Below are positions 7,347 through 33,391 of a stretch of DNA of 64,000 bases, one piece after another. How positions within the stretch are numbered: position 1 is the stretch's first letter; each line of letters opens with the position of its first letter. The DNA comes from an uncultured delta proteobacterium. Its GTDB lineage: Bacteria > Desulfobacterota > Desulfobacteria > Desulfobacterales > UBA11574. The stretch is from assembly GCA_963790095.1 (NCBI GenBank), contig CAWBNO010000022.1:1985-65984 (forward strand), given 5' to 3'. The notes under the pieces were generated by a model. It had not been told where the DNA came from, did not search any database, and was given only the letters and a program-made list of their open reading frames with translations. Both the position numbers and the translations under genes were made by a program.

Positions 7347-7404
7347 AAAAGATCTTTAATTTCAACCAATTAAAAAAATTTCGAGACGTTAATAACACCT
7401 TTTT

Positions 7405-9303: not shown

Positions 9304-9305
9304 AT

Positions 9306-9585: not shown

Positions 9586-9644
9586 GTTTCTTTTGATGCT
9601 TAAAGTTCTGCCTCGATTATGGAATAATGGCAAACAAAAACGAA

Positions 9645-11114
9645 CTACAATTTCTCCATCAAATCCCAGAGCAACCGGACCCCAAAGCCGGTTCCGCCGA
9701 CACCGCAGTATGCGGATCCCTTCTGGGCGTATGCCGGCCCTGCAATATCAATATGTGACCAGCAGGTATCTCCCACAAACTCCGAAAGGAACAGGGCGGC
9801 GGTAATGGCGCCTCCATACCGGGTGCTCCCGATATTGCTCAGATCCGCGAAATCGCTTTTTAACAGTTCTTTGTAATCCTCGGGCAACGGCATCCGCCAG
9901 CAGCGTTCATGGACCTTTTGACCGGACAAGATGACCTCTTCAGCCAGTTTGTCATCAAAAGAGAAAATCCCGGCAATCTTTTCGCCCAAGGCCACGACAC
10001 AGGCACCGGTGAGCGTTGCTATATCAATGAGGATTTGAGGTTTATATTTTTTAATCGCATAGGAGATGGCATCGATCAATATCAATCTTCCTTCGGCATC
10101 TGTGTTGCCGATTTCTATGGTTTTCCCCTCATAGCTTTTAATAATGTCCCCCGGCCGGGAGGCATCGCCGGACGGCATGTTTTCAACGATGGGAATAAGG
10201 CCGATCAATTTTAATTCGGATTTAAGCCTTGCGGCAGTAATCAATGTCGCTGCGACTGCAGCAGCACCGGACATATCCAACTTCATTTCCAAAAGGGATG
10301 CCGAAGGCTTAAGGTTTATACCGCCCGAATCAAAAGTTACCCCTTTCCCCACAAGGGCAACCGTTTTTTTGGCCCTTGCCGGGTTGTACTCCAGGACCAC
10401 CATTCTGGGCTTGCTCCGGCTGCCGGCGGCAACCGCCAGTATGGCCCCGAATTTTTTTTGTTTCAATTCCTTTTCATCCAACACGGTGACCTTGAGGTTT
10501 TCTTTTTTGGCAAGGGTTACGATAGATTTTGTAAAACGTTCGGGTCTTTTGTCGTTGGGCGGCATGCTGACCCATTCTCTGGCGAGAATCGTCCCCTGGC
10601 AGACCGTTTCAACCCTCGATGGTAATTCGCTGTATTTTTCGGCCGTGTCTGCATCTACAAGGAAATTGATTTTTTTGATGGGATGATATTTCTTTTCTTT
10701 TTTGTACTTGTCAAAAAGATGGTTGCCGAGAAAGGCGCCCTCCATCATGGCCTCAAGAACCGACACCATCTCCACATCGATCTTCCCGGCCCCAGGAACC
10801 GCCATGAAGACGTCTGAAAACTCCTTCTTGATTCCCCCCTTTGCCGCCTTACCGGACATGGCACGCATCGCCTCCATATCGATTTTATCATGTTTTCCCA
10901 GCCCCAGAAAAACGACGCTCTCGGCTTTGACTTCGGACAGATTGTACAAGGCGACTTCATCATCTTTCCCACCTTTAAAGGCTTTAATCTTTTTTGCTTT
11001 TCGGATGAGAGAATTTATGGTCTTATCTTCGTGGATGTTCTTATCTTCACAAACCGGAATAACGAGGGATTCTATTTTTTCTTTTTTAAGGTCGACGGAT
11101 TTTAGGTATAACAT
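9645..11114 (-). CDS. pepA: Leucyl aminopeptidase (M17)
   Basis: 489 aa with the NTDAEGRL signature and the VGKGVTFDSGG motif. Confidence 0.9.
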   Translation of the reverse strand: MLYLKSVDLKKEKIESLVIPVCEDKNIHEDKTINSLIRKAKKIKAFKGGKDDEVALYNLSEVKAESVVFLGLGKHDKIDMEAMRAMSGKAAKGGIKKEFSDVFMAVPGAGKIDVEMVSVLEAMMEGAFLGNHLFDKYKKEKKYHPIKKINFLVDADTAEKYSELPSRVETVCQGTILAREWVSMPPNDKRPERFTKSIVTLAKKENLKVTVLDEKELKQKKFGAILAVAAGSRSKPRMVVLEYNPARAKKTVALVGKGVTFDSGGINLKPSASLLEMKLDMSGAAAVAATLITAARLKSELKLIGLIPIVENMPSGDASRPGDIIKSYEGKTIEIGNTDAEGRLILIDAISYAIKKYKPQILIDIATLTGACVVALGEKIAGIFSFDDKLAEEVILSGQKVHERCWRMPLPEDYKELLKSDFADLSNIGSTRYGGAITAALFLSEFVGDTCWSHIDIAGPAYAQKGSAYCGVGGTGFGVRLLWDLMEKL

Positions 11115-11129
11115 CTGTTGTTTCTCCTT

Positions 11130-11445
11130 TTCTAAAACATCTAGAAATTTCTACAATTGGTTAAAATTGATGAACTCGAAAAAATAAAATATCTTTTAAT
11201 AGCTACTGGTTTATGCCACTTCCATGGAATAATGGAATAATGGAGTGATGGATTTCAAAGGAGATTAAAAATTGTTCTTGTTGTTTCCCCAACTTTCCAT
11301 TGTTCCATCATTCCAATTGTGACCTGCGCGCTCGTGCCCCAGGCCGCATCGTCTTGCCCGTCCGCCATGGGCTTCGCCTCAGGCGAATGACGGGCGGGCT
11401 TGGCTGGCGGACGAGTTTGCAATGGCAGGCGGGGCGAACCGAACC
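11130..11445 (+). repeat. Repeat family E copy 1 (tail motif, GGAAT-type arms, GC-rich module)
   Basis: acatctagaaatttctacaatt ... ggaataatggaataatggagtgatgg ... ccattgttccatcattccaattg ... GC module ending ggcggggcgaacc. Related copies lie at 22588, 25370, 28010 and 45382. Confidence 0.8.
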
Positions 11446-11573
11446 AACTTGATTAAACAGCTCCACCATCAAGCTTGGTACATGGCAGATAATGTTCGAA
11501 TACGCCTGATTTGCAAGAGGGCAGACCCGTTTGGGGCTCCTCGCAAACCAAAGTTGGGCATTCACCCGGATAA

Positions 11574-11894
11574 TCAATGCGCAACATTCTGTTGGACGGG
11601 TAATGGTTTAATCGATTTTAGTTCTGCTGCTTCAGATTGCTGAGCAAAGTAAAGATCCCATCGAAGCTGAATATTCATCCAGAAATCCGCTGAGACTCTA
11701 AAATATTTACCAAGTCTTAATGCCGTGCTGGGTGTAACCCCCCTACGACCATTAATTATTTCATTAATCCTTTGGTATGGGACGTGTATTGCCTTTGCCA
11801 GTTCTTTCTGTGCGATACCCATTGGTTTTAAAAACTCTTCTAAGAGCATCTCCCCCGGATGGGTTGGCGTACGGTGAGTTGGTATGCGAATCAT
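11574..11894 (-). CDS. higA: HigA-family antitoxin (XRE HTH)
   Basis: HPGEMLLEEFLKPMGIAQKELAKAIHVPYQRINEIINGRRGVTPSTALRLGKYF is the canonical HigA pattern. It lies downstream of higB. Confidence 0.9.
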   Translation of the reverse strand: MIRIPTHRTPTHPGEMLLEEFLKPMGIAQKELAKAIHVPYQRINEIINGRRGVTPSTALRLGKYFRVSADFWMNIQLRWDLYFAQQSEAAELKSIKPLPVQQNVAH

Positions 11895-11919
11895 TTTGTG
11901 CTCCTAATATAAATAGTTA

Positions 11920-12213
11920 TTAATGATAATCGGTAATTTCAACTTCAACAGGACCTTTTTCAGACCATTTGAAACAAATCCGATATTGGTCATTTATTCG
12001 AACACTGTATTGCCCCAGCCTATTTCGAGTTAAAGCTTCTAATCTGTTTCCTGGTGGAATTCGAAGTTCATCAAGAGATAAAACAGAATCAATCTGGTCA
12101 AGTTTTCGGGCTGCAATTTTCCATAAGTTTTTCGGACATATTTTCCGGGCAATTTTTGAGGACAACCCATTAAAAATATCCTCGGTTCCTTTGCTCTTAA
12201 ATGACTGTATCAT
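11920..12213 (-). CDS. higB: HigB toxin (RelE/ParE superfamily, plasmid maintenance system killer)
   Basis: 97 aa: MIQSFKSKGTEDIF...LDELRIPPGNRLEAL...QYSVRINDQYRICF, with the toxin-first order typical of higBA. Confidence 0.9.
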   Translation of the reverse strand: MIQSFKSKGTEDIFNGLSSKIARKICPKNLWKIAARKLDQIDSVLSLDELRIPPGNRLEALTRNRLGQYSVRINDQYRICFKWSEKGPVEVEITDYH

Positions 12214-14577: not shown

Positions 14578-14900
14578 TAAAGAATCCGGACCCAGAGGAC
14601 CCGGCGTTGGTTTCACCCCAGAGGAAATTTGCTTTGTTGAAAGTCCATTGAATTATTAAAATCACAAATATCAAATTACAAATACCAAACAATGTCCAAT
14701 GACCGAAATTCGAAAATCCAAACAATGTCTCGTCATGGAAGGTTTTGGTCATTGAATATTGGAATTTGTGATTTATTTGTAATTTGGTGCTTGGAATTTG
14801 CAATTTTAGACACAAAACTCCAAGGTAGAGCCATTATCTCTGACTCTTGTTATACGGGACAAGTATGGCCCTGGGGAACAGGTTTCTCAAGATTAAAAAA
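14578..14900 (+). repeat. Hairpin repeat family A copy 1 (ACAAAT/ATTTGT-type arms) with 3' extension reaching the 14932 gene
   Basis: aaagaatccgg...ttgttgaaagtccattgaattattaaaatcacaaatatcaaattacaaatacc...caatgaccgaaattcgaaaatccaaac...ggttttggtcattgaatattggaatttgtgatttatttgtaatttggtgcttgg...gattttagacacaaaactccaagg. Copies also lie at 16302, 24724 and 30353. Confidence 0.85.
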
Positions 14901-16011: not shown

Positions 16012-16290
16012 AGAGGTCCGGGTGTTTTTATTTGTTAAATCGCTCCATGGACAATATTTTTTAAAAACCGTGTAAACTCGTGGTTAAAGGATCGTAAAGA
16101 AAGAACAGGTTTCAATATAAAAACAATGGGTTCAGCTTAGAATAAACACTTCCTAACTTTTGAAATGTTTCGGTAAGCCCCTGTTATTTCTAACGATCCC
16201 TAAACCACTCAAACAGAACACGCATTTTTAAAAAAATTATCCATTCCGCTGATATATAAAGGTTTACAATAAAAACTCCCCCCTCAATAA
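16012..16290 (-). repeat. Hairpin repeat family H copy 1
   Basis: Contains cctgttatttctaacgatccctaaaccactcaaacag, the reverse complement of ctgtttgagtggcttagggatcgttagaaggaacagg at 30100. A third copy lies at about 44270. Confidence 0.7.
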
Positions 16291-16301
16291 TTGAGAAGCA
16301 T

Positions 16302-16521
16302 TAAAGAATCCGGGCCAAGAGGACCGGGCTTTGTTGAAAGTTCATTGAATTGTTAAAATTACAAATATCAAACAAAGTCCAATGACCGAAATTCAAAAAT
16401 CCAAACAATGTCTCTTCATGGAAGGTTTTGGTCATTGTATATTGGAATTTGGATTTTATTTGGATTTTGGTGTTTGGATTTTGTGATTTTAGACACAAAA
16501 CTCCAAGGCAGAGCCATTATC
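16302..16521 (+). repeat. Hairpin repeat family A copy 2 (lacks the 3' extension)
   Basis: aaagaatccgggccaagaggaccggg...tccaatgaccgaaattcaaaaatccaaac...gattttagacacaaaactccaaggcagagccattatc. It ends 14 nt before the mrcA stop. Confidence 0.85.
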
Positions 16522-16534
16522 CGGCATCCAGTTA

Positions 16535-20657: not shown

Positions 20658-21827
20658 ATGACATCAAATCGAACCAAAGAAATGACCCCTTTCATTGCCA
20701 TGGAAGTTCTGGAGAAAGCCCATGAAATGGAACGCCGAGGTGTTCATGTGATCCACCTGGAAGTGGGCGAGCCCGATTTTGACACCCCCAGATGCATCAA
20801 GGAGGCCGCCTGCAAAGCACTCGACAACGGCCATACCCATTATACCCACAGTCTGGGCATGATCGAACTCAGAGAAGCCATCAGTGAGCATTATTCAACG
20901 ACATATGGCGTATCGGTGGATCCTGACCAGATCGTGATATCGTCCGGTACGTCGCCGGCGATGTTTGTTATGTTCTCCACGCTTTTGGAAAAAGGAGACC
21001 AGGTCATTGTCTCTGACCCCCATTATGCCTGCTATCCCAATTTTATAAGGTTCGTCCAGGGCCATCCGGTGTTCGTACCGGTTTATGAGGAAGACGGCTT
21101 TCAATACCGACCCAAGGCCATTGAAAAAAAGATAACGCCCAACACAAAAGGAATATTTATCAACTCCCCGTCCAACCCCACCGGAAACCTCCTTTCCAAG
21201 GAGCGCATGGCGGCCATTGCCGAGTTGTCGTTAAAACCGGATTCACCGTATATTATCTCGGATGAAATCTATCATGGTCTGGTTTATGAGGGGAAAGAAC
21301 ACTCTATTTTGGAATTTACAAAAAAGGCATTTGTATTCAACGGTTTCTCAAAACTATATGCCATGACCGGGTTAAGACTTGGATACATGATCGCTCCGAA
21401 ACATTTTATGCGATCCATCCAAAAGATTCAGCAAAACTTCTTCATTTCCGCCAATGCGATGGTTCAGGTGGCGGGAATCGCCGCCCTTAAAGAAGCCGGA
21501 GAAGATATCTCACGCATGAAGCGAATTTACAATGAGCGAAGGCAATACATGATCCGTCGCCTAAAAGATATGGGACTCGGAATTACCGTGGAACCGACAG
21601 GGGCTTTTTATGTATTTGCAAATGCAAAACACATCTCCGGCGATTCGTATAAACTCGCCTTTGATATTCTCGAAAAAGCCCACGTCGGGGTGACGCCGGG
21701 CATCGATTTTGGTAAAAACGGCGAGGGCTACCTTCGATTTTCATATGCTACTTCGATGGAAAATATTACCGAGGGATTGAACCGACTGGAGAACTACCTA
21801 AAACATTATGATCATAAAATCGGCTGA
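20658..21827 (+). CDS. Class I/II pyridoxal-phosphate aminotransferase (aspartate-aminotransferase-like)
   Basis: 389 aa with SNPTGN and the FSKLYAMTGLRLGY lysine motif. Confidence 0.85.
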   Translation: MTSNRTKEMTPFIAMEVLEKAHEMERRGVHVIHLEVGEPDFDTPRCIKEAACKALDNGHTHYTHSLGMIELREAISEHYSTTYGVSVDPDQIVISSGTSPAMFVMFSTLLEKGDQVIVSDPHYACYPNFIRFVQGHPVFVPVYEEDGFQYRPKAIEKKITPNTKGIFINSPSNPTGNLLSKERMAAIAELSLKPDSPYIISDEIYHGLVYEGKEHSILEFTKKAFVFNGFSKLYAMTGLRLGYMIAPKHFMRSIQKIQQNFFISANAMVQVAGIAALKEAGEDISRMKRIYNERRQYMIRRLKDMGLGITVEPTGAFYVFANAKHISGDSYKLAFDILEKAHVGVTPGIDFGKNGEGYLRFSYATSMENITEGLNRLENYLKHYDHKIG

Positions 21828-22407
21828 TTTTGTTAAAAGCGCTGTTAAACCATCCCACTATCCCCCTGGGACTTTACCGGAAATCGCGTTTACGGGACGA
21901 TCCAATGTGGGAAAATCTTCTCTGATCAACACCCTCGTAAACCGTAAACGTTTGGTAAAAACCAGCTCAACACCCGGTCGCACCCAACTCATCAATTTTT
22001 TTAACATAAACAATGCGTTCTCGTTTGTTGACCTTCCGGGATTCGGATACGCCAAAGTTCCGGAATCCATAAAAAGAACCTGGGGACCCATGGTTGAGAC
22101 GTACCTGTTAAACCGAAAAACATTAAAAGGCGTCGTGCTCATCATGGACATTCGTCGCATGCCCGGAACCCATGAACTCGATTTTATTGAATGGCTTCGT
22201 TACCACACGATTCCCACCATTCTCATCCTGACAAAGGCGGATAAGCTCTCCAAGTCAAAACAGATGAACCAGCATATTGCCATCACAAAAATCCTGGGAA
22301 CCCATCACGACGACCTGATCTTGTTCTCAGCCAAAACCCGCATGGGAAAAGATGCGACCTGGGCTGAAATTGAACAGTTGATCGATGACAACCTGAATCT
22401 TGGATGA
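21808..22407 (+). CDS. engB: Ribosome-biogenesis GTPase EngB/YsxC/YihA
   Basis: PEIAFTGRSNVGKSSLINTL, DLPGFGYAKV and TKADKL motifs. Confidence 0.9.
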   Translation: MIIKSADFVKSAVKPSHYPPGTLPEIAFTGRSNVGKSSLINTLVNRKRLVKTSSTPGRTQLINFFNINNAFSFVDLPGFGYAKVPESIKRTWGPMVETYLLNRKTLKGVVLIMDIRRMPGTHELDFIEWLRYHTIPTILILTKADKLSKSKQMNQHIAITKILGTHHDDLILFSAKTRMGKDATWAEIEQLIDDNLNLG

Positions 22408-22555
22408 AAATTAATGAGAATCTTTAGGTTAGTTGATTGAAGAGGGTTTAAGAAAGATTACAATATCGTACATTTTACCCGCATGGCATACCCGCCTGCC
22501 TCTGCGAGACACGAGGGGGCAGGTCGGATGAGGATCTTTTTTCTCATTAATTTTC
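22406..22555. repeat. Hairpin element (singleton S2) with a 15-bp perfect terminal inverted repeat GAAAATTAATGAGAA/TTCTCATTAATTTTC
   Basis: Read directly. It starts within the engB stop codon. The centre carries cccgcctgcctctgcgagacacgagggggcagg, a motif related to parts of family E and S3. Confidence 0.7.
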
Positions 22556-22587
22556 ACGCAAAATTCAGGTACGAACCGTTTAAATAA

Positions 22588-22945
22588 GAAAAACGTCTCG
22601 GAAATTCTGCAATTGTTTGAAAAAATAGGATATTTTTTGAGGCTTTAACGCTTGCCTCAAAAATGGAATAATGGAATAGTGGAATACTGGAAGATTGGTT
22701 TTTAAAAGGATATTTGCCATTTTAATTTTATCGTCAACACAAATTTTACCATTAACCCGATATAGCATTATGCCAGAACCCACTATTCCATTATTCCAGC
22801 ATTCCACCATTCCAATTGGGCCTGCCCGCTCGTGCCCCAGGCCGCCTCGCCTTGCCCGTCCGCCATGGGCTTCGCCTCTGGCGAATGCCGGGCAGTCTTG
22901 GCTGGCGGCGAGCTTGCAATGGCAGGCGGGGCGAAGCCCCTAAGT
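22588..22945 (+). repeat. Repeat family E copy 2, full length (tail, GGAAT arms, ~95-bp centre, GC module 22816-22941)
   Basis: acgtctcggaaattctgcaattg...ggaataatggaatagtggaatactgg...ccactattccattattccagcattccaccattccaattgggcctgcccgctcgtgcc...ggcggggcgaagcccc. Confidence 0.9.
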
Positions 22946-22965
22946 TCTGGTTAACAAGGATTTAC

Positions 22966-23874
22966 ATGTCAGATATAAAGGAAAATTTTCCGGAATTTAA
23001 ATCCGGATTCGTGGCCATTGTGGGTGCACCGAATGTGGGGAAATCGACCCTTCTAAATCAGATTCTGGGCGAAAAGATTTCAATTACTTCCAAAAAACCA
23101 CAAACCACACGGAACCGGATACTGGGTGTCGTTCATCGGCCCGGGTCTCAACTTATTTTCTTAGATACACCGGGGGTCCATAAGGCCAAACGCCCGTTGA
23201 ACATCCGAATTGTGGAGACAGCCCTTTCAGCACTGGAAAATGTAGATATTGTCCTTGTCCTGATCGATGTGTCCAATCCGGATACTGAATCAGAAGCTTT
23301 TATGGTAAAGAAACTACAAGAAATAAAACGGCCGGTTGTCCTGGTCCTTAACAAAATAGATCTCATAAAAAAGCCTGCGCTCCTGGCCATTATGGACCAT
23401 TGGACGAAATTTCACCCATTTAAGGCCATCATACCGATTTCCGCAATACTTGGGGATCAGGTGGAAGAACTCATTAAGGCCATCGAGGCGTTACTGCCAA
23501 CAGGACCTGCCTATTTTCCCGAAGAAACCCTCACCGATTTGCCGGAACGTTTTATCGCCGCTGAAATGATTCGTGAAAAGGTTTTTCGCTTAACCGGACA
23601 GGAAATACCGTATTCCACAGCCGTCACTGTGGAGTCATTTTCCGAAAAGAAAAAAGGATCCCTGGTAAAAATTGATGCAACCATTCATGTTGAGCGCAGT
23701 TCACAAAAAGGTATGGTTATCGGAAAAAACGGGAGCCGGCTGAAAATGATCGGCACAGAGGCCAGAAAAGAGATCGAACGGATGCTGGGTGCAAAGGTCT
23801 TTCTAAAACTTTTTGTCCGGGTCCATAAAAACTGGAGTAAAGACACAAAAGCCCTTAGAAGATTTGGTTACTGA
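22966..23874 (+). CDS. era: GTPase Era
   Basis: MSDIKENFPEFKSGFVAIVGAPNVGKSTLLN..., with a KH domain at the C-terminus. The start is reset to ATG 22966; the track start at 22816 lies inside repeat E2. Confidence 0.9.
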   Translation: MSDIKENFPEFKSGFVAIVGAPNVGKSTLLNQILGEKISITSKKPQTTRNRILGVVHRPGSQLIFLDTPGVHKAKRPLNIRIVETALSALENVDIVLVLIDVSNPDTESEAFMVKKLQEIKRPVVLVLNKIDLIKKPALLAIMDHWTKFHPFKAIIPISAILGDQVEELIKAIEALLPTGPAYFPEETLTDLPERFIAAEMIREKVFRLTGQEIPYSTAVTVESFSEKKKGSLVKIDATIHVERSSQKGMVIGKNGSRLKMIGTEARKEIERMLGAKVFLKLFVRVHKNWSKDTKALRRFGY

Positions 23875-24725
23875 TGATTCTGTCCTATCACCCCTGCTTT
23901 GAAGGTGAGAAAAACTTACTCTGCGCCGGGCGGGAGCCTGGAGCCGATGACCTTGATGCAATCAGGGCCGCCGATGCCGTTATCCTGCCCCAGGGATGCT
24001 ATCAATCCCTCTACGAAATGGCACGCAAAAACTGCAAACATGTTTTTCCAAATTTTGATGCACGGTTTAATTATAAGGGAAAGATCGGACAGATTCAGCT
24101 TTTTCGAGAAAAAAATGCGCCCCATCCAAAAACTGAAACCCATATAAATATCGACACATTTTCCATAAAATACGGTGAAATATCCCCAAAACCCCCTTTC
24201 GATTTTCCCTTTGTATTCAAATTCGACTGGGGCGGAGAGGGAGATCATGTCTTTTTGATAAAATCGCCTGAGGATTTTCTGAGGATCCTACAAACTGCCA
24301 AGAAATTTGAAAACAGCAACCAAAAGGGATTTATCCTTCAGGAATATATTCCTTCGGAAAACCGATCGCTGAGAGTTGTTATTATCGGACAGACCATGGT
24401 TTCCTACTGGCGGATTCAGCATGAAATAGAAAGTTTTACATCAAATATTGCCAAAGGGGCGGTTGTCGATTTTGACGCTGACCCGGAGCTGCAGAAAGAA
24501 GCCGTCAAATCCGTAAAAGATTTTTGCCTCCGGACGGGAATCGATCTGGCCGGTTTTGATATCCTTTTTTCATCCGGTGCTGGAGTTAACACACCTCTTT
24601 TTTTGGAAATAAACTACTTTTTTGGAAGACGCGGCCTTGGAGGATCAGAAAAATTTTATGGGATATTAAACAGAGAAATCGTAAAATGGATAGACCGTAT
24701 TGGGTTCTCGAAAAAATACCCATAA
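23874..24725 (+). CDS. ATP-grasp domain protein (RimK-like fold), function unknown
   Basis: 283-aa ORF overlapping the era stop by 1 nt. The ATP-grasp-like central and C-terminal region is recognised by resemblance only. Confidence 0.6.
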   Translation: MILSYHPCFEGEKNLLCAGREPGADDLDAIRAADAVILPQGCYQSLYEMARKNCKHVFPNFDARFNYKGKIGQIQLFREKNAPHPKTETHINIDTFSIKYGEISPKPPFDFPFVFKFDWGGEGDHVFLIKSPEDFLRILQTAKKFENSNQKGFILQEYIPSENRSLRVVIIGQTMVSYWRIQHEIESFTSNIAKGAVVDFDADPELQKEAVKSVKDFCLRTGIDLAGFDILFSSGAGVNTPLFLEINYFFGRRGLGGSEKFYGILNREIVKWIDRIGFSKKYP

Positions 24726-25045
24726 AGAATCCGGGCCCAGAGGATCCGGCGTTTGTTTTACCCCATAGGAAATTTGCTTTGTTGAAAGTTCATTGAATTA
24801 TTAAAATTACAAATATCAAATGACAAATATCAAACAATGTCCAATGACCGAAATTCGAAAATCCAAACAATGTTTCGTCCTGGAAGGTTTTGGTCATTGA
24901 ATATTGGAATTTGTGATTTATTTGTAATTTGGTGCTTGGAATTTGTGATTTTAGACACAAAACTCCAAGGCAAAGCCATTATCTCTCTGACTCCAGTAAT
25001 ACGGGACATGCATGGCATAGAGGACCAGATTTTTCAAGATTAAAC
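24724..25045 (+). repeat. Hairpin repeat family A copy 3, with 3' extension reaching the HNH gene
   Basis: Near-identical to copy 1 through ...gccattatctct..gactc...atacgggaca...caagattaaa. Confidence 0.9.
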
Positions 25046-25057
25046 AAAAGACATAAC

Positions 25058-25360
25058 ATGGAGCCATTTGCATATAATCTGGAGGAGAAAGACATCAAAA
25101 GGGAGCGCCGCAAGGCCAGAGAACTCCGGAACTCCCAGTGGTGGAAACGTCGGTGTGCCAAGGGCGTCTGCCACTACTGCGGAGGCTCTGTTCCGCCCAC
25201 GGAACTGACCATGGACCATATTGTGCCGATCTCCCGAGGCGGCCGGACCACCAAAGGGAACGTGGTCACTGCTTGCAAGGATTGCAACAACGCCAAAAAA
25301 CAGCTTCTCCCCATTGAATGGGAACAATACTTAATAGACCTCCGGACGGATACCGGGTAA
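25058..25360 (+). CDS. Small stand-alone HNH endonuclease
   Basis: [11 protein letters not shown]...[44 protein letters not shown]. The start is reset to ATG 25058; the track start lies in the repeat. Confidence 0.8.
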
Positions 25361-25369
25361 AAAACGAAC

Positions 25370-25585
25370 ATAGGGGCTTTGCCCCGACTGGACTATTGCA
25401 AGACTCGCCAGCCAGCCAAGAACTGCCGGCATTCTGCCAGAGGCGAAGCCCATGGCGGACGGGCAAGGCGAGGCGGCCTGGGGCACGAGCGGGCAGGCCC
25501 AAATGGAATGGTGGAAGTGGCATAAACCAGGCGCTATTAAAAAATCTTTAATTTCAAAAAATTGTAGATTTTCGGAGACGTTAGG
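25370..25585 (-). repeat. Repeat family E copy 3 (GC module 25373-25502 plus tail; GGAAT arms largely missing)
   Basis: ggggctttgcccc...gccagaggcgaagcccatggcggacgggcaaggcgaggcggcctggggcacgagcgggcaggccc...aattgtagattttcggagacgtt. Confidence 0.85.
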
Positions 25586-25595
25586 AGTGCGTTGT

Positions 25596-26492
25596 ATGCG
25601 TATCGTAACCAGACCAGACTTTGACGGCGTGGTATGTGCTGCGCTTCTGTATGAAGCGGAAAATGTAACAAAACCTGTGAAATGGGTCGAACCCAATGAC
25701 ATGCAAAGGGGCCTGATCGACGTTCAAGAGGGGGATATCATCGCAAACCTGCCCTATCACAAGGGATGCTCCCTCTGGTTTGACCATCACCATACCAATA
25801 GAATCGATACGCCGTTCAAGGGTGTTTTCAAGATTGCACCTTCGGCGGCCGGCGTTATTTTTGAACATTACAAAGACCGATTTACCCGTGATTATAGGGA
25901 ATTAATCAAAGAAACAGACAAAATCGATTCCGCCGATTTATCTTTGGATGAAGTGCTGTATCCTGAAAACTACGATTATATTTTGCTCTCCATGACGATT
26001 TTGGGTCGGGACGACGATGGTGAGCCCTATTGGAACCGGCTTGTCGATCTACTCAGAAAATATGACATCAACACGGTTTTTGAAGATCCGGAGGTGAAGG
26101 CACGTTGCAGTGGCGCTGTTGAAGACAACAAGAAATATAAATCCATTTTGAAAGAACATACGAAATTGAAAGGACACGTATCCATTACAGATTTTCGTGG
26201 GTTCGATAAAGCACCGGAGGGCAATCGTTTTTTGGTCTATTCCATGTATTCCGAAGCGGTGGTGAGTGTTAAAATATTTTATGACGGCGATGATAAAGAA
26301 AAAGTCGCCGTAAGTGTGGGGCACAGTATTTTTAATCGAAATTGCAATGTGAATGTAGGGCTGATGCTCTCAGGGTTTGAAGGCGGCGGGCATCGTGGCG
26401 CAGGGTCCTGCAGGTTCCACGTCAGCAAGTCGGAAGATTATATCCCCAAGATTATAGACATCTTGTTGAAGAATGAAAACAACGAGAATTAA
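25596..26492 (+). CDS. DHH-superfamily phosphoesterase (NrnB/exopolyphosphatase-related type)
   Basis: MRIVTRPDFDGVVCAALL, DHHH and GGGH (FEGGGHRGAGS) motifs. The start is reset to ATG 25596. Confidence 0.75.
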   Translation: MRIVTRPDFDGVVCAALLYEAENVTKPVKWVEPNDMQRGLIDVQEGDIIANLPYHKGCSLWFDHHHTNRIDTPFKGVFKIAPSAAGVIFEHYKDRFTRDYRELIKETDKIDSADLSLDEVLYPENYDYILLSMTILGRDDDGEPYWNRLVDLLRKYDINTVFEDPEVKARCSGAVEDNKKYKSILKEHTKLKGHVSITDFRGFDKAPEGNRFLVYSMYSEAVVSVKIFYDGDDKEKVAVSVGHSIFNRNCNVNVGLMLSGFEGGGHRGAGSCRFHVSKSEDYIPKIIDILLKNENNEN

Positions 26493-26504
26493 GATTGATA
26501 GTCC

Positions 26505-26609
26505 TGTGAAAAGTAAAAAGTTAAACGTGAAAAGTCTATATGTTGTTTAATATTGCCTCTTAATGTACTAAATGTAGTCGTTTTACATTTCACGTTTCAC
26601 TTTTTACAA
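26505..26609 (+). repeat. Hairpin repeat family K copy 1 (GTGAAA/GTAAAA-type arms)
   Basis: gtgaaaagtaaaaagttaaacgtgaaaagtctatatgttgtttaatattgcctcttaatgtactaaatgtagtcgttttacatttcacgtttcactttttac. The reverse complement recurs at 31583-31693. Confidence 0.9.
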
Positions 26610-26614
26610 ATTTA

Positions 26615-27979
26615 TCAAGGTTGAACTTTAAGTGAACCTTGGTCGACCGTCAGTTTCTTAAGGTTGGAAATTGTTTTCCAGGAAAAGGGGTCTTTCCCAC
26701 AGGGTAATAGGGCATTGTTCGTAAATACAGGGTCAGCTTCCAGATCGTATCGCGAGGATGCAACCGCCCGGCGCCACAGCGCTGTCTGGGGGATCGGCGT
26801 GTAATAGGCCAGGATCGGGTCTATTCCGTTTTGTCTGACGATTTCGATGGAACTCTCTATGGACGCTATCTTTTGTCCGGGGAGACCGACCAGCAGGTAT
26901 GCGCCCAATCCACCTTTGTCAAAACCCGCCGCTTTCAGACAGGTAACAGCGCTTTTAAATTCTTCGGCAGTTACCTTTCCATCCAATTCTTCTCTTTTTT
27001 CAAAAGCGGTCGTCTCGAGCCCGAGGCGAAGTGTCTTGAAACCTGCTTGAAACATCAAGGCTGCTGTCTGTTTCGAAATTCCGCGGATATGAACCGCATT
27101 GGGGGTATGGAAACGGACGTCAAGACCGGCATCGATAATCTTTTCGAACATGGGAACCGCATGCATTTCCGAATCGACAAGGAGTGCGTCGTCGTAGAAT
27201 ACAAAATCTTTTACCGCATACCGTTTATGCCAGTAAGTTATTTCTTCCACCACGGATTCGGGACTCCGCAACATTCTTTTTGGATTCAACACATGGGAGG
27301 CACAATATTTACAGGAAAACGGACATCCTTTGGATGTCAGCAGCGGCACATAGTTTATCTTTGTTTGAAGATCAAATGCCGGATAAGGGTATGTATCGAG
27401 ATCATCCGGGTCAAACTTGGGATTTACGGGTGCCCCGGTATAGTCACCGACCAGATCGAGGATATATTCCTCACCGGCTCCTGTTGTTACCCGGTCTGCA
27501 CCTGAATGGATTGTGGCATGCTCCGACCAAAGGCTGGCATATATGCCTCCCAGCACAATGGCCACATCCGGAAAAACCTCTTTTAAAACCCCAATGGTTT
27601 CCTGTATGCCCGGATACCAGTAGGTCATCATGGACGTCATGAGCACAAGATCGGGTCGGTGTATGGAAATGAGATCTTTCATGAACCATTCTTTCCGGAC
27701 ACCGTATCTGGAATAGTTCCGCGGAATGTCTTCCAGGCCGGGGGGATTTGGAATTAGGGTCTTAAGGTAGGGCCCCCGGCCGTATCTGGCATAAGGATCT
27801 GCAAAAGACGCCTCCGGATGAAAACGATCCAGGCAGTCCATGTATGTAATGGCAAATCCATGATCCCGAAGTATCGCTGCCAAGGTAAGAAGTCCCAATG
27901 GTTTGGCCCAGAAATCATACGCCGCAAAATCGTGTATCCAAGGATTTACCAGAAGTATGTGGGGGGTATCAGGCTTCAC
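26615..27979 (-). CDS. B12-binding-domain radical SAM enzyme
   Basis: 454 aa with an N-terminal B12-binding-like domain (ILLVNPW...) and the CPFSCKYC radical SAM cluster motif. Confidence 0.8.
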   Translation of the reverse strand: MKPDTPHILLVNPWIHDFAAYDFWAKPLGLLTLAAILRDHGFAITYMDCLDRFHPEASFADPYARYGRGPYLKTLIPNPPGLEDIPRNYSRYGVRKEWFMKDLISIHRPDLVLMTSMMTYWYPGIQETIGVLKEVFPDVAIVLGGIYASLWSEHATIHSGADRVTTGAGEEYILDLVGDYTGAPVNPKFDPDDLDTYPYPAFDLQTKINYVPLLTSKGCPFSCKYCASHVLNPKRMLRSPESVVEEITYWHKRYAVKDFVFYDDALLVDSEMHAVPMFEKIIDAGLDVRFHTPNAVHIRGISKQTAALMFQAGFKTLRLGLETTAFEKREELDGKVTAEEFKSAVTCLKAAGFDKGGLGAYLLVGLPGQKIASIESSIEIVRQNGIDPILAYYTPIPQTALWRRAVASSRYDLEADPVFTNNALLPCGKDPFSWKTISNLKKLTVDQGSLKVQP

Positions 27980-28009
27980 AAGTTAACGGGTCGAAGAGGT
28001 TTTCAAACA

Positions 28010-28358
28010 CAAGTTAGGGGCTTCGCCCCGCCTGCCATTGCAAGCTCGCCCGCCAGCCAAGACTGCCCGGCATTCGCCAGAGGCGAAGCCCATGGCGGAC
28101 GGGCAAGGCGAGGCGGCCTGGGGCACGAGCGGGCAGGCCCAATTGGAATGCTGGAATAATGGAATCATGGGTTCTGGGATAATGCAATGTTGGGTTAATG
28201 GTGGAGTTTGTGTTGACGATAAAATTAAAATGGCTAATATCCTTTTAACAACCAATCTTCCAGTATTCCACTATTCCATTATTCCATATTCGAGCCAAGC
28301 TTTCAAGTCTCAAAAAATGTCCTATATTTTCATTAAGTTGAAGAAATTCCGAGACGTT
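28010..28358 (-). repeat. Repeat family E copy 4, full length, inverted relative to copy 2 (GC module 28016-28142)
   Basis: The GC module is the reverse complement of the copy-2 module except for one extra nucleotide. The centre and arms are about 90% similar by eye. Confidence 0.9.
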
Positions 28359-28361
28359 CAT

Positions 28362-28844
28362 TTATCGGACATCATTCGTCGGAAAATATTTCATGGAGGT
28401 TTTCTTCAATTCTTTGCGGCTGAAGAGAAGGGTGTAGGTGTTGACCGAAGCTTCTGTGGACAATATCCCGGCAATTTCCCGGCAGGATGCTTCATCTTTT
28501 GCATGGATCATCGTATAAAGATTATACGGCCAGTCACCGGTTGGATTTCGCCGGTAACAGTGAGAAACCGCATTAAAGGAGGCCATCTTTTCTCCCACCG
28601 CGTCAATGCGGTCTTCATCAACCTGCCATGCCACCATGGCATTGGCTTCAAATCCGGATTGCTGATGACGTATGGTTGCACCAAACCGTCGGATAACTCC
28701 CCTGTCACAAAGATCTTTCATCCTTTCCAGGAGCAATTCTTCGTCAATGCCCAATTTTTCTGCTATTTTTAAATATGGGCGTTGCGTGATTGCAATTTCA
28801 CCTTGAATCGAAGCAATGATTTTTTTATCCAGTTCTGTCAACAT
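28362..28844 (-). CDS. Lrp/AsnC-fold protein of the siroheme-decarboxylase AhbA/AhbB (NirD/L/G/H) type
   Basis: MLTELDKKIIASIQGEIAITQRPYLKIAEKLGIDEELLLERMKDLCDRGVIRRFGA... The start is reset to ATG 28844; the longer track ORF overlaps mtnA. Confidence 0.65.
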   Translation of the reverse strand: MLTELDKKIIASIQGEIAITQRPYLKIAEKLGIDEELLLERMKDLCDRGVIRRFGATIRHQQSGFEANAMVAWQVDEDRIDAVGEKMASFNAVSHCYRRNPTGDWPYNLYTMIHAKDEASCREIAGILSTEASVNTYTLLFSRKELKKTSMKYFPTNDVR

Positions 28845-28875
28845 AGGGCGATTTAAGAGATTGTCATAAAAAAAG

Positions 28876-29988
28876 TCAAGGGTTTTTCTTTTCCGGGAAT
28901 AAGCGGAGTATCTCTTTTTCCGAAGCCGAACAGACCCCCCTTTCCGTGATAAATCCTGTAACAAGTCTTGACGGCGTAACATCAAAAGCAAAGTTTTGGG
29001 CCGGACTGTCAGCCGGTGCAATCAGAACATGTCGAATATCCCCCCGGTCCAGTCCCTGGACATATCGTACTTCATCCGGGTCCCGGGTTTCGATAGGTAT
29101 CTCTTTGACCCCGTCTCTGAGCTTCCAGTCAAAGGTGCTGGATGGGAGGGCCACATAGAAAGGGATATTGTTGTCCCTTGCCGCAAGGGCTTTAAGATAC
29201 GTCCCGATCTTGTTGGCCACATCTCCGGTACAGGTGGTTCTGTCGGTTCCGACGATCACCATGTCGACCATGCCGTGCTGCATGAGATGACCACCGGCAT
29301 TGTCGGTGATGATGGTATGTTTAACACCGTACTTGCCCAGCTCCCAGGCCGTCAGTCTGGCACCCTGGTTGAGGGGCCGGGTTTCGTCGACCCACACATG
29401 GATATCTATACCCTTATCAAAGGCCGCATACATCGGCGCGGTGGCCGTACCGTATTCTATACAGGCCAGCCATCCGGCATTACAATGGGTTAACAGATTG
29501 ACAGTTTTTCCTTTTTTGCTGCGACTGATGTTGTCGATCAAACTAAATCCATGCGCCCCGATTTTACGGCAGTTTTCAGCTTCGGCCTCGGCAATTTTTT
29601 CGGCTTCCTTTCTGGCTGCTTCAACCTTCTCTGACGAATTGCCGATGTTCAACATCTCTGACAACACCGCATCCACGGCCCAGGCCAGATTAACCGCTGT
29701 GGGCCGGGCCGATTTCAATCGGATGCATTCTTCAATGAGATAGGCATCTTCAATAGGATCTGTGGGAGAATTCAACGCCGCAAGATATACCCCATATGCA
29801 GCCGTCACACCGATTAACGGTGCCCCCCTGACAAACATCTCCTGGATGGCCCGGATGACGTCATCAACGCTTTTAAGATCGGCAACGACAAACTCGTGGG
29901 GCAGCCGCCGCTGATCGATGACGTTTACCGTTTTTAAATCCGAATCGAGCCATATGGGGCGGATGTTTTGACCGTCTACTTTCATCAT
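28876..29988 (-). CDS. mtnA: S-methyl-5-thioribose-1-phosphate isomerase (eIF-2B alpha/beta/delta-like family)
   Basis: 370 aa: VIDQRRLPHEFVVADLKSVDDVIRAIQEMFVRGAPLIG...VGTDRTTCTGDVANKIGTY. Confidence 0.85.
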   Translation of the reverse strand: MMKVDGQNIRPIWLDSDLKTVNVIDQRRLPHEFVVADLKSVDDVIRAIQEMFVRGAPLIGVTAAYGVYLAALNSPTDPIEDAYLIEECIRLKSARPTAVNLAWAVDAVLSEMLNIGNSSEKVEAARKEAEKIAEAEAENCRKIGAHGFSLIDNISRSKKGKTVNLLTHCNAGWLACIEYGTATAPMYAAFDKGIDIHVWVDETRPLNQGARLTAWELGKYGVKHTIITDNAGGHLMQHGMVDMVIVGTDRTTCTGDVANKIGTYLKALAARDNNIPFYVALPSSTFDWKLRDGVKEIPIETRDPDEVRYVQGLDRGDIRHVLIAPADSPAQNFAFDVTPSRLVTGFITERGVCSASEKEILRLFPEKKNP

Positions 29989-30030
29989 CGAAACCCTTTT
30001 ACGGAAATAACCGATGTTTTAAATAATTGA

Positions 30031-30306
30031 AGGGTCGGGGAGTTTTTATTCTAACTCCTTGAGTACCAGCGGAATGGATGATCTTTTTTTAAATCGGATG
30101 CTGTTTGAGTGGCTTAGGGATCGTTAGAAGGAACAGGCGTATGACGAAATGGTATTTTTAAAGAAATTTTAAAGTTATGCAATGAACCTATTGATATTTC
30201 AAAGATAATTTCCTGTTCTTTCTCTACGATTCCTTGCCGCGAGTTCATGCGGTTTAAAAAAAGATCATCCATGAAGCGACTTTATTAAAAAAACACCCCG
30301 ACCCCT
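30031..30306 (+). repeat. Hairpin repeat family H copy 2
   Basis: Termini gggtcgggg / ccccgaccc. Internal ctgtttgagtggcttagggatcgttagaaggaacagg pairs with cctgttctttctctacgattcc. Confidence 0.75.
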
Positions 30307-30352: not shown

Positions 30353-30647
30353 TAAAAAATCCTGGTCCAGAGGGCCAGGCTTTGGGTTACCCCTGGAAGG
30401 GGCTGTTTTCCTGAAAGTTAATTGACTTATTGAAATTCCAAATAACAAATCCCAAAAAACAAACAAATAACAATGACCGAAATTCAAAATCCCAAACAAA
30501 AAAACAACCGCTTTGAACCAGTTTGGAATTTGTATTTTCGAATTTGAGATTTATTTGTGATTTGGTGCTTGGAGTTTGTGATTTTAGGCACAAAAATCCA
30601 AGGCAGAGCCAAAGAACTCTGACCTGACCCAGAGGGCCAGGTTTTTC
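30353..30647 (+). repeat. Hairpin repeat family A copy 4 (more diverged)
   Basis: ...acaatgaccgaaattcaaaatcccaaac...gatttatttgtgatttggtgcttggagtttgtgattttaggcacaaaaatccaaggcagagcc, bounded by cctggtccagagggccagg hairpins. Confidence 0.8.
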
Positions 30648-31254: not shown

Positions 31255-31575
31255 TCAACCTCTCTGCTCAGACGAATCAACAAACAGCGGCACCACCTTG
31301 AACTGCGTGACGTCCACCAGTCCTTTGTCGGTAATTTTTAGCTCGGGAATGACGGGAAGCGCCAAAAACGATAAGGTCATAAAAGGATCGGTTAGGGTTG
31401 AACCGAATTCCCGGGCGGCGTCGAGGAGACGATCCAGCTGATGGTTTATGGTTTGGATCGGTTCCAAAGACATGAGACCTGCGATGGGAAGCGGTAGGTC
31501 GGCCCATACCCTGTTGTCACAGACGGCTGCCAGCCCTCCGCCCATGGTGATCAAGGCTTGCACTGCTGTTTTCAT
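31255..31575 (-). pseudogene. C-terminal fragment of adenine deaminase (Adenine_deam_C-like), lacking the catalytic amidohydrolase domain
   Basis: The 106-aa ORF GGGLAAVCDNRVWADLPLPIAGLMS...DPFMTLSFLALPVIPELKITDKGLVDV matches only the last ~100 aa of Ade-type enzymes. Repeat K2 starts 8 nt upstream of it. Confidence 0.6.
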
Positions 31576-31582
31576 ATCCCCT

Positions 31583-31693
31583 TTGTAAAAAGTGAAACGT
31601 GAAATGTAAAATGTAAAACGACTACATTTAGTAGATTAAGAAGCAATATTGCACAACATATAGACTTTTCACGTTTAACTTTTAACTTTTTAC
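31583..31693 (-). repeat. Hairpin repeat family K copy 2 (inverted relative to copy 1)
   Basis: gtaaaaagtgaaacgtgaaatgtaaaatgtaaaacgactacatttagtagattaagaagcaatattgcacaacatatagacttttcacgtttaacttttaactttttac. Confidence 0.9.
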
Positions 31694-31745
31694 CGAACTA
31701 TCACTATTTAATATTTATTTTTATCCGAACAAGAACTCATTTTTT

Positions 31746-33141: not shown

Positions 33142-33391
33142 CCGGTCCGTGTTCAGGGGTACGCTCTCCCGCTTCACTCCGGTGTCTGCGTGTCTGGTCA
33201 TTTCAATGACTTGGCAGCGGGGGCATTCCTGCCCCCTCCGTGTTCTCCCGCAAAAAGCATGCGGGAGCCGCGGTCTCCCCCACTGCCAAGTCATTGAAAT
33301 AACGAAGCCACTCCGCCAACCCGCCTGCCATGCGAGGCACGAGCGGGCAGGTATCGTTACACGGGATAGCGTACCCCTGAACACGGACCGG
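33142..33391. repeat. 250-bp nested hairpin element (singleton S3) with a perfect 24-bp terminal inverted repeat
   Basis: CCGGTCCGTGTTCAGGGGTACGCT (33142-33165) is the exact reverse complement of 33368-33391. Inner inverted repeat tcatttcaatgacttggcag/ctgccaagtcattgaaata; central stem ctcccgca/tgcgggag. Confidence 0.9.

Follow-up and report, generated by a model that had tools for sequence, protein, structure and literature searches.

Inverted GC-rich repeats around era in an uncultured member of the Desulfobacterales are copies of a small hairpin element nested in a larger intergenic repeat

What are the two near-identical GC-rich stretches that bracket, in opposite orientations, a 5-kb segment beginning with era in an uncultured delta proteobacterium (GTDB Desulfobacterota; Desulfobacteria; Desulfobacterales; UBA11574), and does their inverted arrangement make this segment a switch? 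Both lie in the window analysed here, a stretch of 64,000 nt (GCA_963790095.1, contig CAWBNO010000022.1, forward-strand positions 1,985-65,984). Each is a copy of the GC module, a very small mobile DNA element that forms hairpins and is nested in a larger AT-rich intergenic repeat, family E, which consists of a leader, a long hairpin with TGGAATNN octamer arms, the ~110-nt GC module and a short tail. The elements of the window are the following.

22593-22946, plus strand: E1, full family-E copy between engB (21808-22407) and era (22966-23874), with leader (22593-22638), small hairpin GAGGC...GCCTC (22639-22658), TGGAATNN-arm hairpin (22664-22817), GC module (22821-22930) and tail (22931-22946)
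22821-22930, plus strand: GC module of E1, 110 nt, CCTGCCCGCTCG...TGGCAGGCGGG
28011-28357, minus strand: E4, full family-E copy, inverted relative to E1, between a B12-radical SAM gene (26615-27979, minus) and a NirDL-like gene (28362-28844, minus), with tail (28011-28026), GC module (28027-28137), hairpin (28140-28293) and leader (28294-28357)
25367-25582, minus strand: E3, family-E copy between HNH (25058-25360) and a DHH-like gene (25596-26492), with leader, GC module (about 25384-25497) and tail, the GGAAT hairpin being collapsed to CCAAATGGAATGGTGGAAG
11137-11451, plus strand: E copy with a more diverged GC module (11323-11433), neighbouring a leucyl aminopeptidase gene (9645-11114, minus) and HigA/HigB
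45382-45567, plus strand: E copy with leader, hairpin and tail and no GC module
7347-7391, minus strand: solo E leader in the opposite orientation to the E copy at 11137 (repeat finder D11, I15)
33320-33351, minus strand: 32-nt short form of the module (CCTGCCCGCTCGTGCCTCGCATGGCAGGCGGG) in another carrier repeat, F (33142-33391)
22491-22523, minus strand: second short-form hairpin, with 3 mismatches, in a small composite element (22391-22575) upstream of E1

Among the genes named in a first-pass annotation, Pfam confirms Era, the RimK-type ATP-grasp protein, HNH and the B12-radical SAM protein; the DHH gene has no Pfam match at E<=0.001, although DHH and GGGH motifs occur in its translation.

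Global alignment of 22816-22941 with the reverse complement of 28016-28142 gives 126/127 identical positions, the sole difference being a 1-nt indel (GGCGGCGAG versus GGCGGGCGAG), exactly as had been read by eye. The shorter form is a strain-specific deletion in E1, the 98% identical ortholog (L012) having GGCGGGCGAG. The longest exact run measures 101 nt (22808-22908 / 28150-28050) and is followed by 35 nt more after the indel. Outside the module, over leader, arms and centre (22588-22815 versus 28143-28358), identity falls to 83.8%, short of the ~90% estimated by eye, and E1 and E4 as a whole are 88.8% identical (324 matches over 363/354 nt), in agreement with the repeat finder (I1, 215 nt, 88%; I2, 121 nt, 97%; I12, 51 nt, 90%). 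Since the DNA immediately beyond the two elements is unrelated (~49% identity), these boundaries are real. The first 67 nt of a third copy (25373-25502) match without change, much as described earlier, and several indels follow (91.7% identity overall); a fourth (11319-11440) is indeed more diverged (87.4%). The window contains a module-derived 21-mer 4 times, where 100 shuffles give an expectation of 0.

Rather than being just a conserved segment of E, the GC module is a nested unit with a mobility of its own. Its ends are exact (5'-CCTGCC...GGCAGGCGGG-3'), and it exists in a 32-nt core form and a ~110-nt expanded form, the extra hairpin layers of the latter being located in the loop of the core. 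The make-up of E itself is modular, as seen in the copy at 45382-45567, which lacks the module, and in E3, which lacks the hairpin. Modules are found in E carriers, in the unrelated F carrier, in the MAGs JAFCZV01, DATKWE01 and JAAXQD01 and in ~25 metagenome contigs, and comparison of empty and filled sites shows that they are gained and lost precisely, without target-site duplication at the module junctions, at defined positions of several unrelated AT-rich carriers.

The orthologous sites of E1, E3 and E4 all have a module-less E in related Desulfobacterales metagenome contigs. Several of the contigs used here are short assemblies, and some (L022, L045) are demonstrably mosaic. At the E1 site all states can be seen: no E (L050/L051), E without the module (L060/L061), and E with the module (the window and L012); part of the composite element at 22391-22575 is moreover present without E in L054 and L058. 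The spacer orthologous to E3 (L050, L051, L054) contains an E carrier in reverse orientation that is complete, hairpin included, but has no module, and the E4 site is filled in the window and module-less in the mosaic L045. Within the window, the copy at 45382-45567 represents a paralogous empty carrier (CCAATTGTGA/GCCAAGCGAACTAACTTG), which was compared with filled carriers in L007, L028, L033 and L035. Similarly, F carriers occur empty, with a 32-nt module or with a ~109-nt module, with identical junctions (GATA/.../TTGG): the 33.3-kb site is empty in L042, which is 99.25% identical to the window, as well as in L050, L010 and L019, and is occupied by the long module in at least 10 distinct contigs across the JAFCZV01, PVMK01 and JGI metagenome assemblies. 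Finally, in the L010 and L019 orthologues of the 11.3-kb locus the module is interrupted by an additional short hairpin of 33 nt, which the window and a 97% identical ortholog (L039) lack at this locus.

The module-less relatives at these sites bear out the suggestion that the identity of E1 and E4 reflects recent spread or gene conversion. Primary insertions would be the work of an enzyme that recognises hairpins and whose gene lies elsewhere in the genome, the simplest option being a single-strand HUH/tyrosine-type transposase (against this, no transposase is found among the ~30 window ORFs scanned with Pfam). Once a carrier is filled, homologous gene conversion between E copies would spread and homogenise the module, which would account both for the single module variant shared by E1, E3 and E4 within 5.8 kb and for the identity of E1 and E4 over ~140 nt alongside a 16% difference between their AT-rich parts. 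The TCT/CAGT variant is found only at these three sites and their orthologues; L017 and L023 have the TCT loop without CAGT. Where such structured inserts fall in 5' UTRs or between cistrons, any effects on neighbouring genes would be incidental.

Could conversion among carriers have done everything, the presence and absence of modules being mere conversion tracts without any transposition? The module invariably keeps one position and one orientation in E carriers, and likewise in F carriers, so that conversion alone could yield the pattern without repeated transposition; the identical tract of E1 and E4 reaches beyond the module into the carrier, by ~13 nt on its left and ~16 nt on its right; the shared variant is confined to a local cluster; and E1, whose leader matches the module-less ortholog L060 over its first 32 nt and whose interior is E4-type, looks like a conversion-like mosaic. 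Nevertheless we regard this as unlikely, given that at least five unrelated contexts, with no homology between their flanks, contain this unit with identical, exact ends (the junction with the E tail, the F carrier, the 22.4-kb element, an intergenic position in L030 and the module interior in L010/L019); conversion could not have created the first copy in each. Selection on a structured non-coding RNA, a cis-regulator or sRNA that would give era and the radical SAM gene a common 5' element, appears very improbable. In its favour, modules from several MAGs and metagenomes share 92-97% identity, those of E1 and E4 directly precede the downstream gene and point the same way, and the minus-strand RNA reaches a folding z-score of -2.4. 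Yet other repeat families and syntenic coding DNA are about as similar across genomes (88-95%), E3 and the 11.3-kb copy run antisense to the adjacent genes, and the era, radical SAM and DHH-like genes of close relatives lack the module altogether. The palindromic pairings noted earlier (GGGCTTCGCC with GGCGAAGCCC, GGCCTG with CAGGCC) are genuine, but the module as a whole is a weak imperfect palindrome (58.5% identity to its own reverse complement, a score equalled by 3/500 shuffles), with a hairpin potential just marginally above shuffled sequence (z = -0.8 to -2.4) and minimum-free-energy structures that vary between copies and between strands. Rfam returns no match at gathering thresholds, the sole sub-threshold match (WsnRNA46, 28.8 bits versus a gathering score of 65.3) falling on the AT hairpin; the module copies show 0 compensatory pairs, with paired cells and covariation score at the level of shuffles; and copies occur in both orientations relative to flanking genes. 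Rfam, covariation and strand bias thus give no support for an RNA gene.

The proposal that E1 and E4 form an inverted recombination substrate holds as far as homology is concerned (354-363 nt, 89%, a 101-nt exact run), and the pair would be usable for RecA-type inversion of the era-radical SAM segment without being a dedicated switch; that this segment inverts is plausible but unproven. With regard to orientation, three contigs ~99% identical to the window (L042, L043, L044) are collinear with it at E4, and an inversion-type junction is seen only in L049 (1.9 kb), which joins NirDL, E4, the module and era as predicted. This contig extends just ~50 nt beyond the repeat and joins a left flank of the 99% type to an era allele of the 95% type, and may therefore be chimeric. 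A second inverted pair, the solo leader at 7347-7391 (a fuller copy in L010, a full E in L032/L033) and the E copy at 11137, brackets a 3.7-kb segment (7391-11134) that is apparently inverted in L019, whose order is 7795->7347, then E, then 11356->11928. Rearrangement breakpoints coincide with E in L011, L012, L017, L019, L023, L032/L033 and L049, of which the recombinant junctions of L049, L019 and L011 cross repeats longer than the assembler k-mer and so could be chimeras. A programmed, phase-variation-like switch that recombines at E1 and E4 and thereby controls era, the radical SAM gene and the genes next to them is scarcely credible, even with an inverted pair around 5 kb, the L049 junction and the second pair flipped in L019. 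No invertase or recombinase gene is found in or near the segment by a Pfam scan of window ORFs, the enclosed genes are housekeeping genes in ancestral synteny (engB-era-rimK-HNH-DHH, which the engB-E1-era order follows), the E copies are recent, lineage-specific insertions, the three near-identical contigs have only the window's orientation, and the mixed L049 resembles a chimera, same-sample mosaics being known (L022, L045). With a history of insertion and conversion, the inverted pair would be a by-product.

The system belongs to the class of REP/BIME/MITE-like nested repeats. REP, BIME and REPIN elements of Enterobacteria and Pseudomonas are mobilised by RAYT tyrosine transposases (PMC3116915, PMC3337134, PMC2817692, PMC3733652). 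Shared features are short GC-rich extragenic hairpins within AT-richer intergenic DNA, mosaic composite repeats, a hairpin unit of ~100 nt, loss that is precise and involves no target duplication, and numerous copies at gene boundaries, with copies acting as hotspots of recombination and insertion. In contrast, the module palindrome has no adjoining GTAG or CGTC tag, the 110-nt module does not consist of one conserved REP and its inverted copy (its two halves have just CCTGCC/GGCAGG in common), no RAYT is found among the ~30 window ORFs scanned with Pfam, and the sequence is unrelated, in a host from the Desulfobacterales rather than the gamma- or alpha-proteobacteria. Another parallel is offered by the small dispersed repeats SDR1-8 of Nostocaceae (Elhai et al. 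2008, Genome Res 18:1484, as cited in PMC3116915, ref. 43, and PMC5861425). These are said to be very small hairpin-forming units of tens of nt, inserted precisely without duplication, and reportedly nest in tandem short-period repeats, mini-transposons and each other; we know of no enzyme that mobilises them. The module shares their tiny hairpin units, duplication-free insertion and nesting in repeats and each other, but differs in phylum, in sequence and in having an expanded 110-nt form, and it lands in hairpin carriers of octamer periodicity, not in heptamer tandem repeats or HIP1.

Modular MITE-like repeats include pneumococcal BOX (boxA-boxB-boxC), Neisseria Correia/NEMIS and enterobacterial ERIC (PMC3184786, PMC10969869, PMC2229807). 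Like these, E is a non-coding intergenic repeat of 100-400 nt with interchangeable modules and long hairpin potential, which adjoins start or stop codons and varies between copies in the presence of modules; unlike them, it has neither terminal inverted repeats nor target-site duplication. Again in contrast to them, we know of no parent insertion sequence for E. Insertion sequences that target REP loops are exemplified by IS1397 (PMC94167, as listed in PMC3116915). As far as the available descriptions go, such elements and IS200/IS605-derived palindrome-associated elements (PATEs) share with the module the lack of terminal inverted repeats and of duplication, end hairpins, precise excision, and insertion into or beside existing hairpins. 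The module nevertheless departs from IS200/IS605-type target rules, because no conserved target, of 4-5 nt 5' of the left end or otherwise, is found among the five left-flank endings compared (GATA, GTGA, TGGG, CTTG, CCGA); TnpA/TnpB are not seen among the ~30 window ORFs scanned with Pfam, and at 32-110 nt the module is smaller than described PATEs.

We thus consider it likely that family E is a mosaic repeat of intergenic DNA, neither coding nor autonomous, and the GC module a separate, smaller hairpin element inserted by an enzyme and spread by conversion. The nested repeats near era are a clean new instance of a general kind of "junk" repeat already known in bacteria, rather than a novel type of gene or switch.

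Alignment of the five family-E copies in the window shows that this AT-rich intergenic repeat is a mosaic of four parts. Its leader reads ACGTCTCGGAAATTCTACAATT..., the arms of its long hairpin consist of repeated TGGAATNN octamers, and a GC-rich module of ~110 nt and a short tail (GCGAAGCCCCTAAGTT or GCGAAGCGAACTAACTTG) make up the rest; copies vary in the parts that they carry.

Copies of family E, of its GC module and of the short form of the module
22593-22946, + strand: E1, module at 22816-22941
25367-25582, - strand: E3, leader, module and tail with collapsed hairpin; third module copy at 25373-25502
28011-28357, - strand: E4, module at 28016-28142
45382-45567: E copy without module (leader, hairpin and tail)
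7347-7391: solo E leader
11319-11440: fourth module copy
33142-33391: F, a second carrier repeat of the module, holding only the 32-nt short form CCTGCCCGCTCGTGCCTCGCATGGCAGGCGGG (33320-33351)
22491-22523: second short form, directly upstream of E1

Global alignment of 22816-22941 with the reverse complement of 28016-28142 gives 126 identical positions of 127, the sole difference being a 1-nt indel (GGCGGCGAG vs GGCGGGCGAG), just as a first-pass annotation made from the sequence alone had read. The longest exact run common to E1 and E4 covers 101 nt (22808-22908 / 28150-28050) and is followed by 35 nt past the indel. Outside the module (leader, GGAAT arms and centre) identity is 83.8%, below the ~90% that had been estimated by eye for arms and centres, and over the whole elements it is 88.8%; the sequences directly flanking the two elements are unrelated (~49%). 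The third module copy is identical over its first 67 nt (~65 had been claimed), beyond which it carries indels (91.7% overall), and the fourth, correctly described as more diverged, stands at 87.4%. A module 21-mer occurs four times in the window against none expected. E1, E4 and the 45.4-kb copy run in the direction of the genes next to them, whereas E3 and the 11.1-kb copy are antisense to theirs.

The module is a separate unit with constant ends across contigs (5'-CCTGCCCGCTCG...TGGCAGGCGGG-3'), sitting either in E carriers or in the unrelated F carrier. Its long version corresponds to the short form plus ~80 nt of hairpin layers between GTGCC and TGCA, and intermediate or extra-layered versions exist in related contigs (L015, L013/L029). 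Short forms have stems of 6-9 bp and DNA fold z-scores of -0.7 to -2.7. There are six units in the 64 kb, every copy being intergenic. A 21-mer scan of public genomes and metagenomes recovered true module copies only in the Desulfobacterales/'Deltaproteobacteria' MAGs JAFCZV01, DATKWE01 and JAAXQD01 (the closest MAG, ~91% identical over syntenic DNA) and in ~25 sediment metagenome contigs. Neither the module nor E1 has a copy in viral, plasmid or phage collections, and an nhmmer module profile found no diverged copies beyond the 21-mer carriers in the sequence set searched.

Comparison of orthologous sites among related metagenome and MAG contigs (numbered with the prefix L) shows this unit to be gained or lost precisely.

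States of the carriers at orthologous sites
F, empty: GATA followed directly by TTGGCGGAG; L010 (two copies), L019, L042, L050
F, short-filled: window
F, long-filled: many JAFCZV01 and PVMK01 contigs
E4 site, E without module: CATTCCAAATG followed directly by GGGCGAAGCCCCTAACTTG; L045
E3 site, E without module: TAGGGGCTTCGCCCC followed directly by AATTGGAAT..., hairpin and leader intact; L050, L051, L054
E1 site (engB-era spacer), 53 nt without E: L050/L051
E1 site, E without module: L060/L061
E1 site, E with module: window and L012

The three states of F have identical junctions; in L042, whose sequence at the F locus matches the window at 99.25% identity, the 32-mer is missing. Relatives carry E without the module at all three sites E1, E3 and E4. 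Within the 11.3-kb module, a 33-nt short form separates CCTTG from CCCGTCC in the orthologues L010 and L019, and is missing from the window and from L039 (97%). Empty/filled pairs at the E1, E4, E3 and F sites and in the module interior show no target-site duplication, and the insertion sites have no flank motif in common. The unit has therefore been mobile in evolutionary time, and recently too, with fixed ends and precise gain or loss without target duplication in at least five unrelated contexts. The E-less engB-era spacer (L050 7947-8001, L051 3562-3616; window 22407-22966) contains TATCTTACCC, which stands exactly where E sits in other lineages and looks like the two ends of E joined together (ACGTCT...AGCCC), perhaps the footprint of an excision or a seed that preceded insertion.

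Between E copies there are also mosaics of a conversion-like kind. E1 begins with 32 nt of leader equal to those of the module-less orthologue L060, and its interior is E4-type; the module variant that combines a TCT loop with GGGCAGTC is found only at E1, E3, E4 and their orthologues (L017 and L023 have the TCT loop, CAGT being absent), and the 1-nt deletion of E1 is missing from its 98% orthologue L012. Such a pattern would be expected if, once the carriers had diverged by 16%, neighbouring E copies had converted one another or a single master had inserted repeatedly. The mosaic of leader and interior, together with the locally restricted variant, supports the recent spread or gene conversion that the first-pass annotation had invoked.

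In their behaviour the repeats resemble REP, BIME and REPIN sequences (PMC3116915, PMC2817692, PMC3733652), modular MITE-like repeats (PMC3184786, PMC10969869) and cyanobacterial small dispersed repeats, the latter as far as they are cited in PMC3116915 and PMC5861425. The 32-33-nt form agrees with REP/REPIN sequences in being a short (20-40 bp), GC-rich, imperfect, extragenic and multicopy palindrome. A REP bears an unpaired GTAG or CGTC tag at one palindrome end (PMC3733652), whereas the unit ends in CCTGCC... and ...GGCAGGCGGG with flanks GATA, GTGA, TGGG / TTGG, GCGA; the leader of E does have CGTC at its outer end (ACGTCTCGG), but no palindrome adjoins it. A REPIN pairs two highly conserved inverted REPs across a spacer of lower conservation, so that a single long hairpin with compensatory changes results (PMC3116915). 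In contrast, the palindrome that had been read in the module is present but weak (58.5% identity to its own reverse complement, with 3 of 500 shuffles scoring as high), its folding z-scores range from -0.8 to -2.4, minimum-energy folds vary and compete among copies and strands, explicit counting gives no compensatory pairs, and the module ends share just the 6-bp CCTGCC/GGCAGG. Unlike MITEs, E is devoid of terminal inverted repeats, its ends ACGTCTCGG... and ...CTAACTTG being non-complementary, the module ends are complementary over 6 bp only, and target duplications are absent at the E4, E3 and F sites and within the module. The absence of both features is shared with PATEs of the IS200/IS605 type, but not the conserved 4-5-nt target 5' of the left end, since the left flanks of the unit differ (…CGATA, …TGTGA, …TTGGG, …CCTTG, …TCCGA, …GAATA), as do its reverse-strand flanks. 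Membership of the REP/REPIN class would further call for a RAYT (Y1 transposase) gene flanked by the REPs in the genome, of which the analysis covered 64 kb. The SDR1-8 families, reportedly named by Elhai in 2008, are said to be 21-27-nt sequences restricted to Nostocaceae; with a Desulfobacterales host, a length of 32 or 110 nt and another sequence, our unit is similar to them in behaviour (nested, precise, without duplication) and not by membership. As tested here, the repeats thus behave like known kinds, without REP tag or doublet symmetry, terminal inverted repeats, target duplication or fixed target.

As to what moves the unit, primary insertions would be made by a hairpin-recognising single-strand transposase encoded elsewhere, and homologous conversion would account for secondary spread. 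Among the ~30 window ORFs scanned with Pfam there is no transposase (Y1_Tnp or other), and neither the window nor the inspected related loci (380 kb) contain an autonomous insertion sequence with the same ends, from which a MITE would derive. The HNH gene was rejected as source of the mobilising enzyme, because it belongs to an era-rimK-HNH-DHH synteny that is conserved in relatives with a module-less E3 and is unlinked to the presence of the module. The ORF at 25596-26492, called a DHH gene in the first-pass annotation, has DHH and GGGH motifs in its translation but no Pfam match (E<=0.001), and is conserved downstream of HNH in relatives. Exact-protein look-ups found no record for engB, radical SAM (V and M starts), DHH-like or HNH. 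We put forward only as a tentative and rather doubtful proposal that the 32-nt CCTGCC...GGCAGGCGGG hairpin and its 110-nt layered derivative may represent a previously undescribed class of ultra-small mobile elements of Desulfobacterales, which would insert without target duplication, be still active (precisely present or absent among contigs 99% identical to the window), land in AT-rich hairpin repeats of octamer periodicity, and be moved by neither a GTAG/CGTC-tag RAYT nor a classical fixed-target IS200/IS605 TnpA.

As far as the tests reach, the module is not an RNA gene. Rfam 15 gives no match at gathering thresholds over the whole window, so that the Rfam/Infernal scan proposed in the first-pass annotation came out empty, and a permissive scan of 22380-22970 returned WsnRNA46 (28.8 bits vs 65.3) and a miRNA model (17.7 vs 83), both on the AT hairpin. 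RNAalifold on 27 distinct copies, too similar for a decisive result, finds one compensatory pair with a covariation term of 0.19 kcal/mol (~zero), and explicit counting on the MFE-derived structure equals shuffles. A C-G to T-A compensation visible by eye (CTCGCC/GGCGAG to TCGTC/GACGAG, in the 11.3-kb copy and L039) belongs to just one of several competing folds. Moreover, the module is dispensable at orthologous sites and occurs in either orientation relative to transcription. Counts from sigma-70 and terminator scans are not above those of shuffles (E4 contains a TTGAAA-17-AATAAT match and E1 a weaker one). By eye, the reverse leader has a TGGCAT resembling a sigma-54 site, which fails at the -12 element, and a tRNA/tmRNA scan found none. 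The finding reveals no new gene, RNA or regulatory switch.

From contig comparisons, an inversion between E1 and E4 is no more than plausible. Relatives whose Era protein is ~91% identical share the ancestral order engB-era-rimK-HNH-DHH, which means that no rearrangement has taken place at E1 in the window, and three contigs of ~99% identity (L042, L043, L044) are collinear with it across NirDL-E4-rSAM(-DHH). L049 (1937 nt, JGI 3300068095) runs from NirDL into a leader and hairpin of the E4 type and on, via the module, into the beginning of era, exactly the junction predicted for an E1 x E4 inversion; it reaches only ~50 nt past the repeat, and its left side is of the 99% type and its era allele the 95%-type one of L011. 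The module is a frequent end point of contigs, and the two 97% Era contigs are cut off 35-94 nt ahead of the gene, too early to give context. L022 (vs 27967-29616) and L045 (vs 27819-30104) are mosaic, one side being 100% and the other 78-90% identical to the window, with the switch in L045 at the E hairpin; either inter-strain recombination or chimeric assembly may have produced them, and they call for caution with every junction taken from these samples. Given the short overhang and mixed alleles of L049, these mosaics and the contig ends at the module, chimeric assembly is a possible source of such junctions. In a comparable case at 7.3-11.1 kb, inverted E copies surround a 3.7-kb segment: both copies are kept in L010, the full copy is on the other side in L032/L033, and the segment is flipped in L019. 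Further alternative flanks at E copies occur in L011, L012, L017 and L023. A HigB/HigA toxin-antitoxin pair (11574-12213) adjoins the 11.1-kb E copy and is absent from syntenic L032, which has only ~217 nt there.

Family E is one of many families in the dispersed repeat of the window, which by self-BLAST amounts to ~4.3 kb in 27 mostly intergenic intervals. Octamer-periodic arms are common to all its AT-rich families. A fourth family of ~260 nt (14578-14841, 16261-16524, 24723-24986, 30353-30611), with one copy between rimK and HNH within the E1-E4 segment, combines a GC-rich hairpin at its head (GGGCCCAGAGG..CCCGG) with a long hairpin whose CAAAT arms have ~8-nt periodicity. The inverted pair 26491-26610 / 31582-31708 (117 nt at 88%, 30-nt perfect core, arms with ~8-nt AAAAGT periodicity) has one arm inside the E1-E4 segment and the other outside, so that the two inverted pairs interleave. 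Relative to L042, 1465 nt are missing at 31581/31582; the gap begins exactly at the edge of the AT-rich hairpin repeat (31582-31708), and the deletion has removed the 5' two-thirds of an adenine deaminase gene, leaving a 106-aa C-terminal ORF (31255-31575). The 275 nt at 53535-53809, which are 90-93% identical on at least six otherwise unrelated JAFCZV01/PVMK01 contigs and have no Rfam match at gathering thresholds, are probably another dispersed repeat or an unannotated RNA. Some E hairpins hold a further small GC hairpin in their loops (CCGGGGTGAAAC...GTTTCACCGGGG; L033 ~576-760, L019 ~530-600), which points to further nested families of micro-hairpins.

To our knowledge, small nested repeats of this type have rarely been documented outside Enterobacteria, Pseudomonas and cyanobacteria. 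Here one orthologous spacer offers clean before-and-after states (no carrier, carrier only, carrier with module), a second carrier is found empty or with 32 or 110 nt, and contigs 99% identical to each other differ, which would make insertion rules and enzyme directly testable given a complete genome or an enrichment culture. Short-read metagenome assemblies of this lineage become broken or scrambled at these repeats, as contigs end or turn mosaic at the module. Synteny breakpoints, and an adjacent deletion that truncates a gene, likewise coincide with the repeats, which thus matter both for MAG quality and for the interpretation of gene order.
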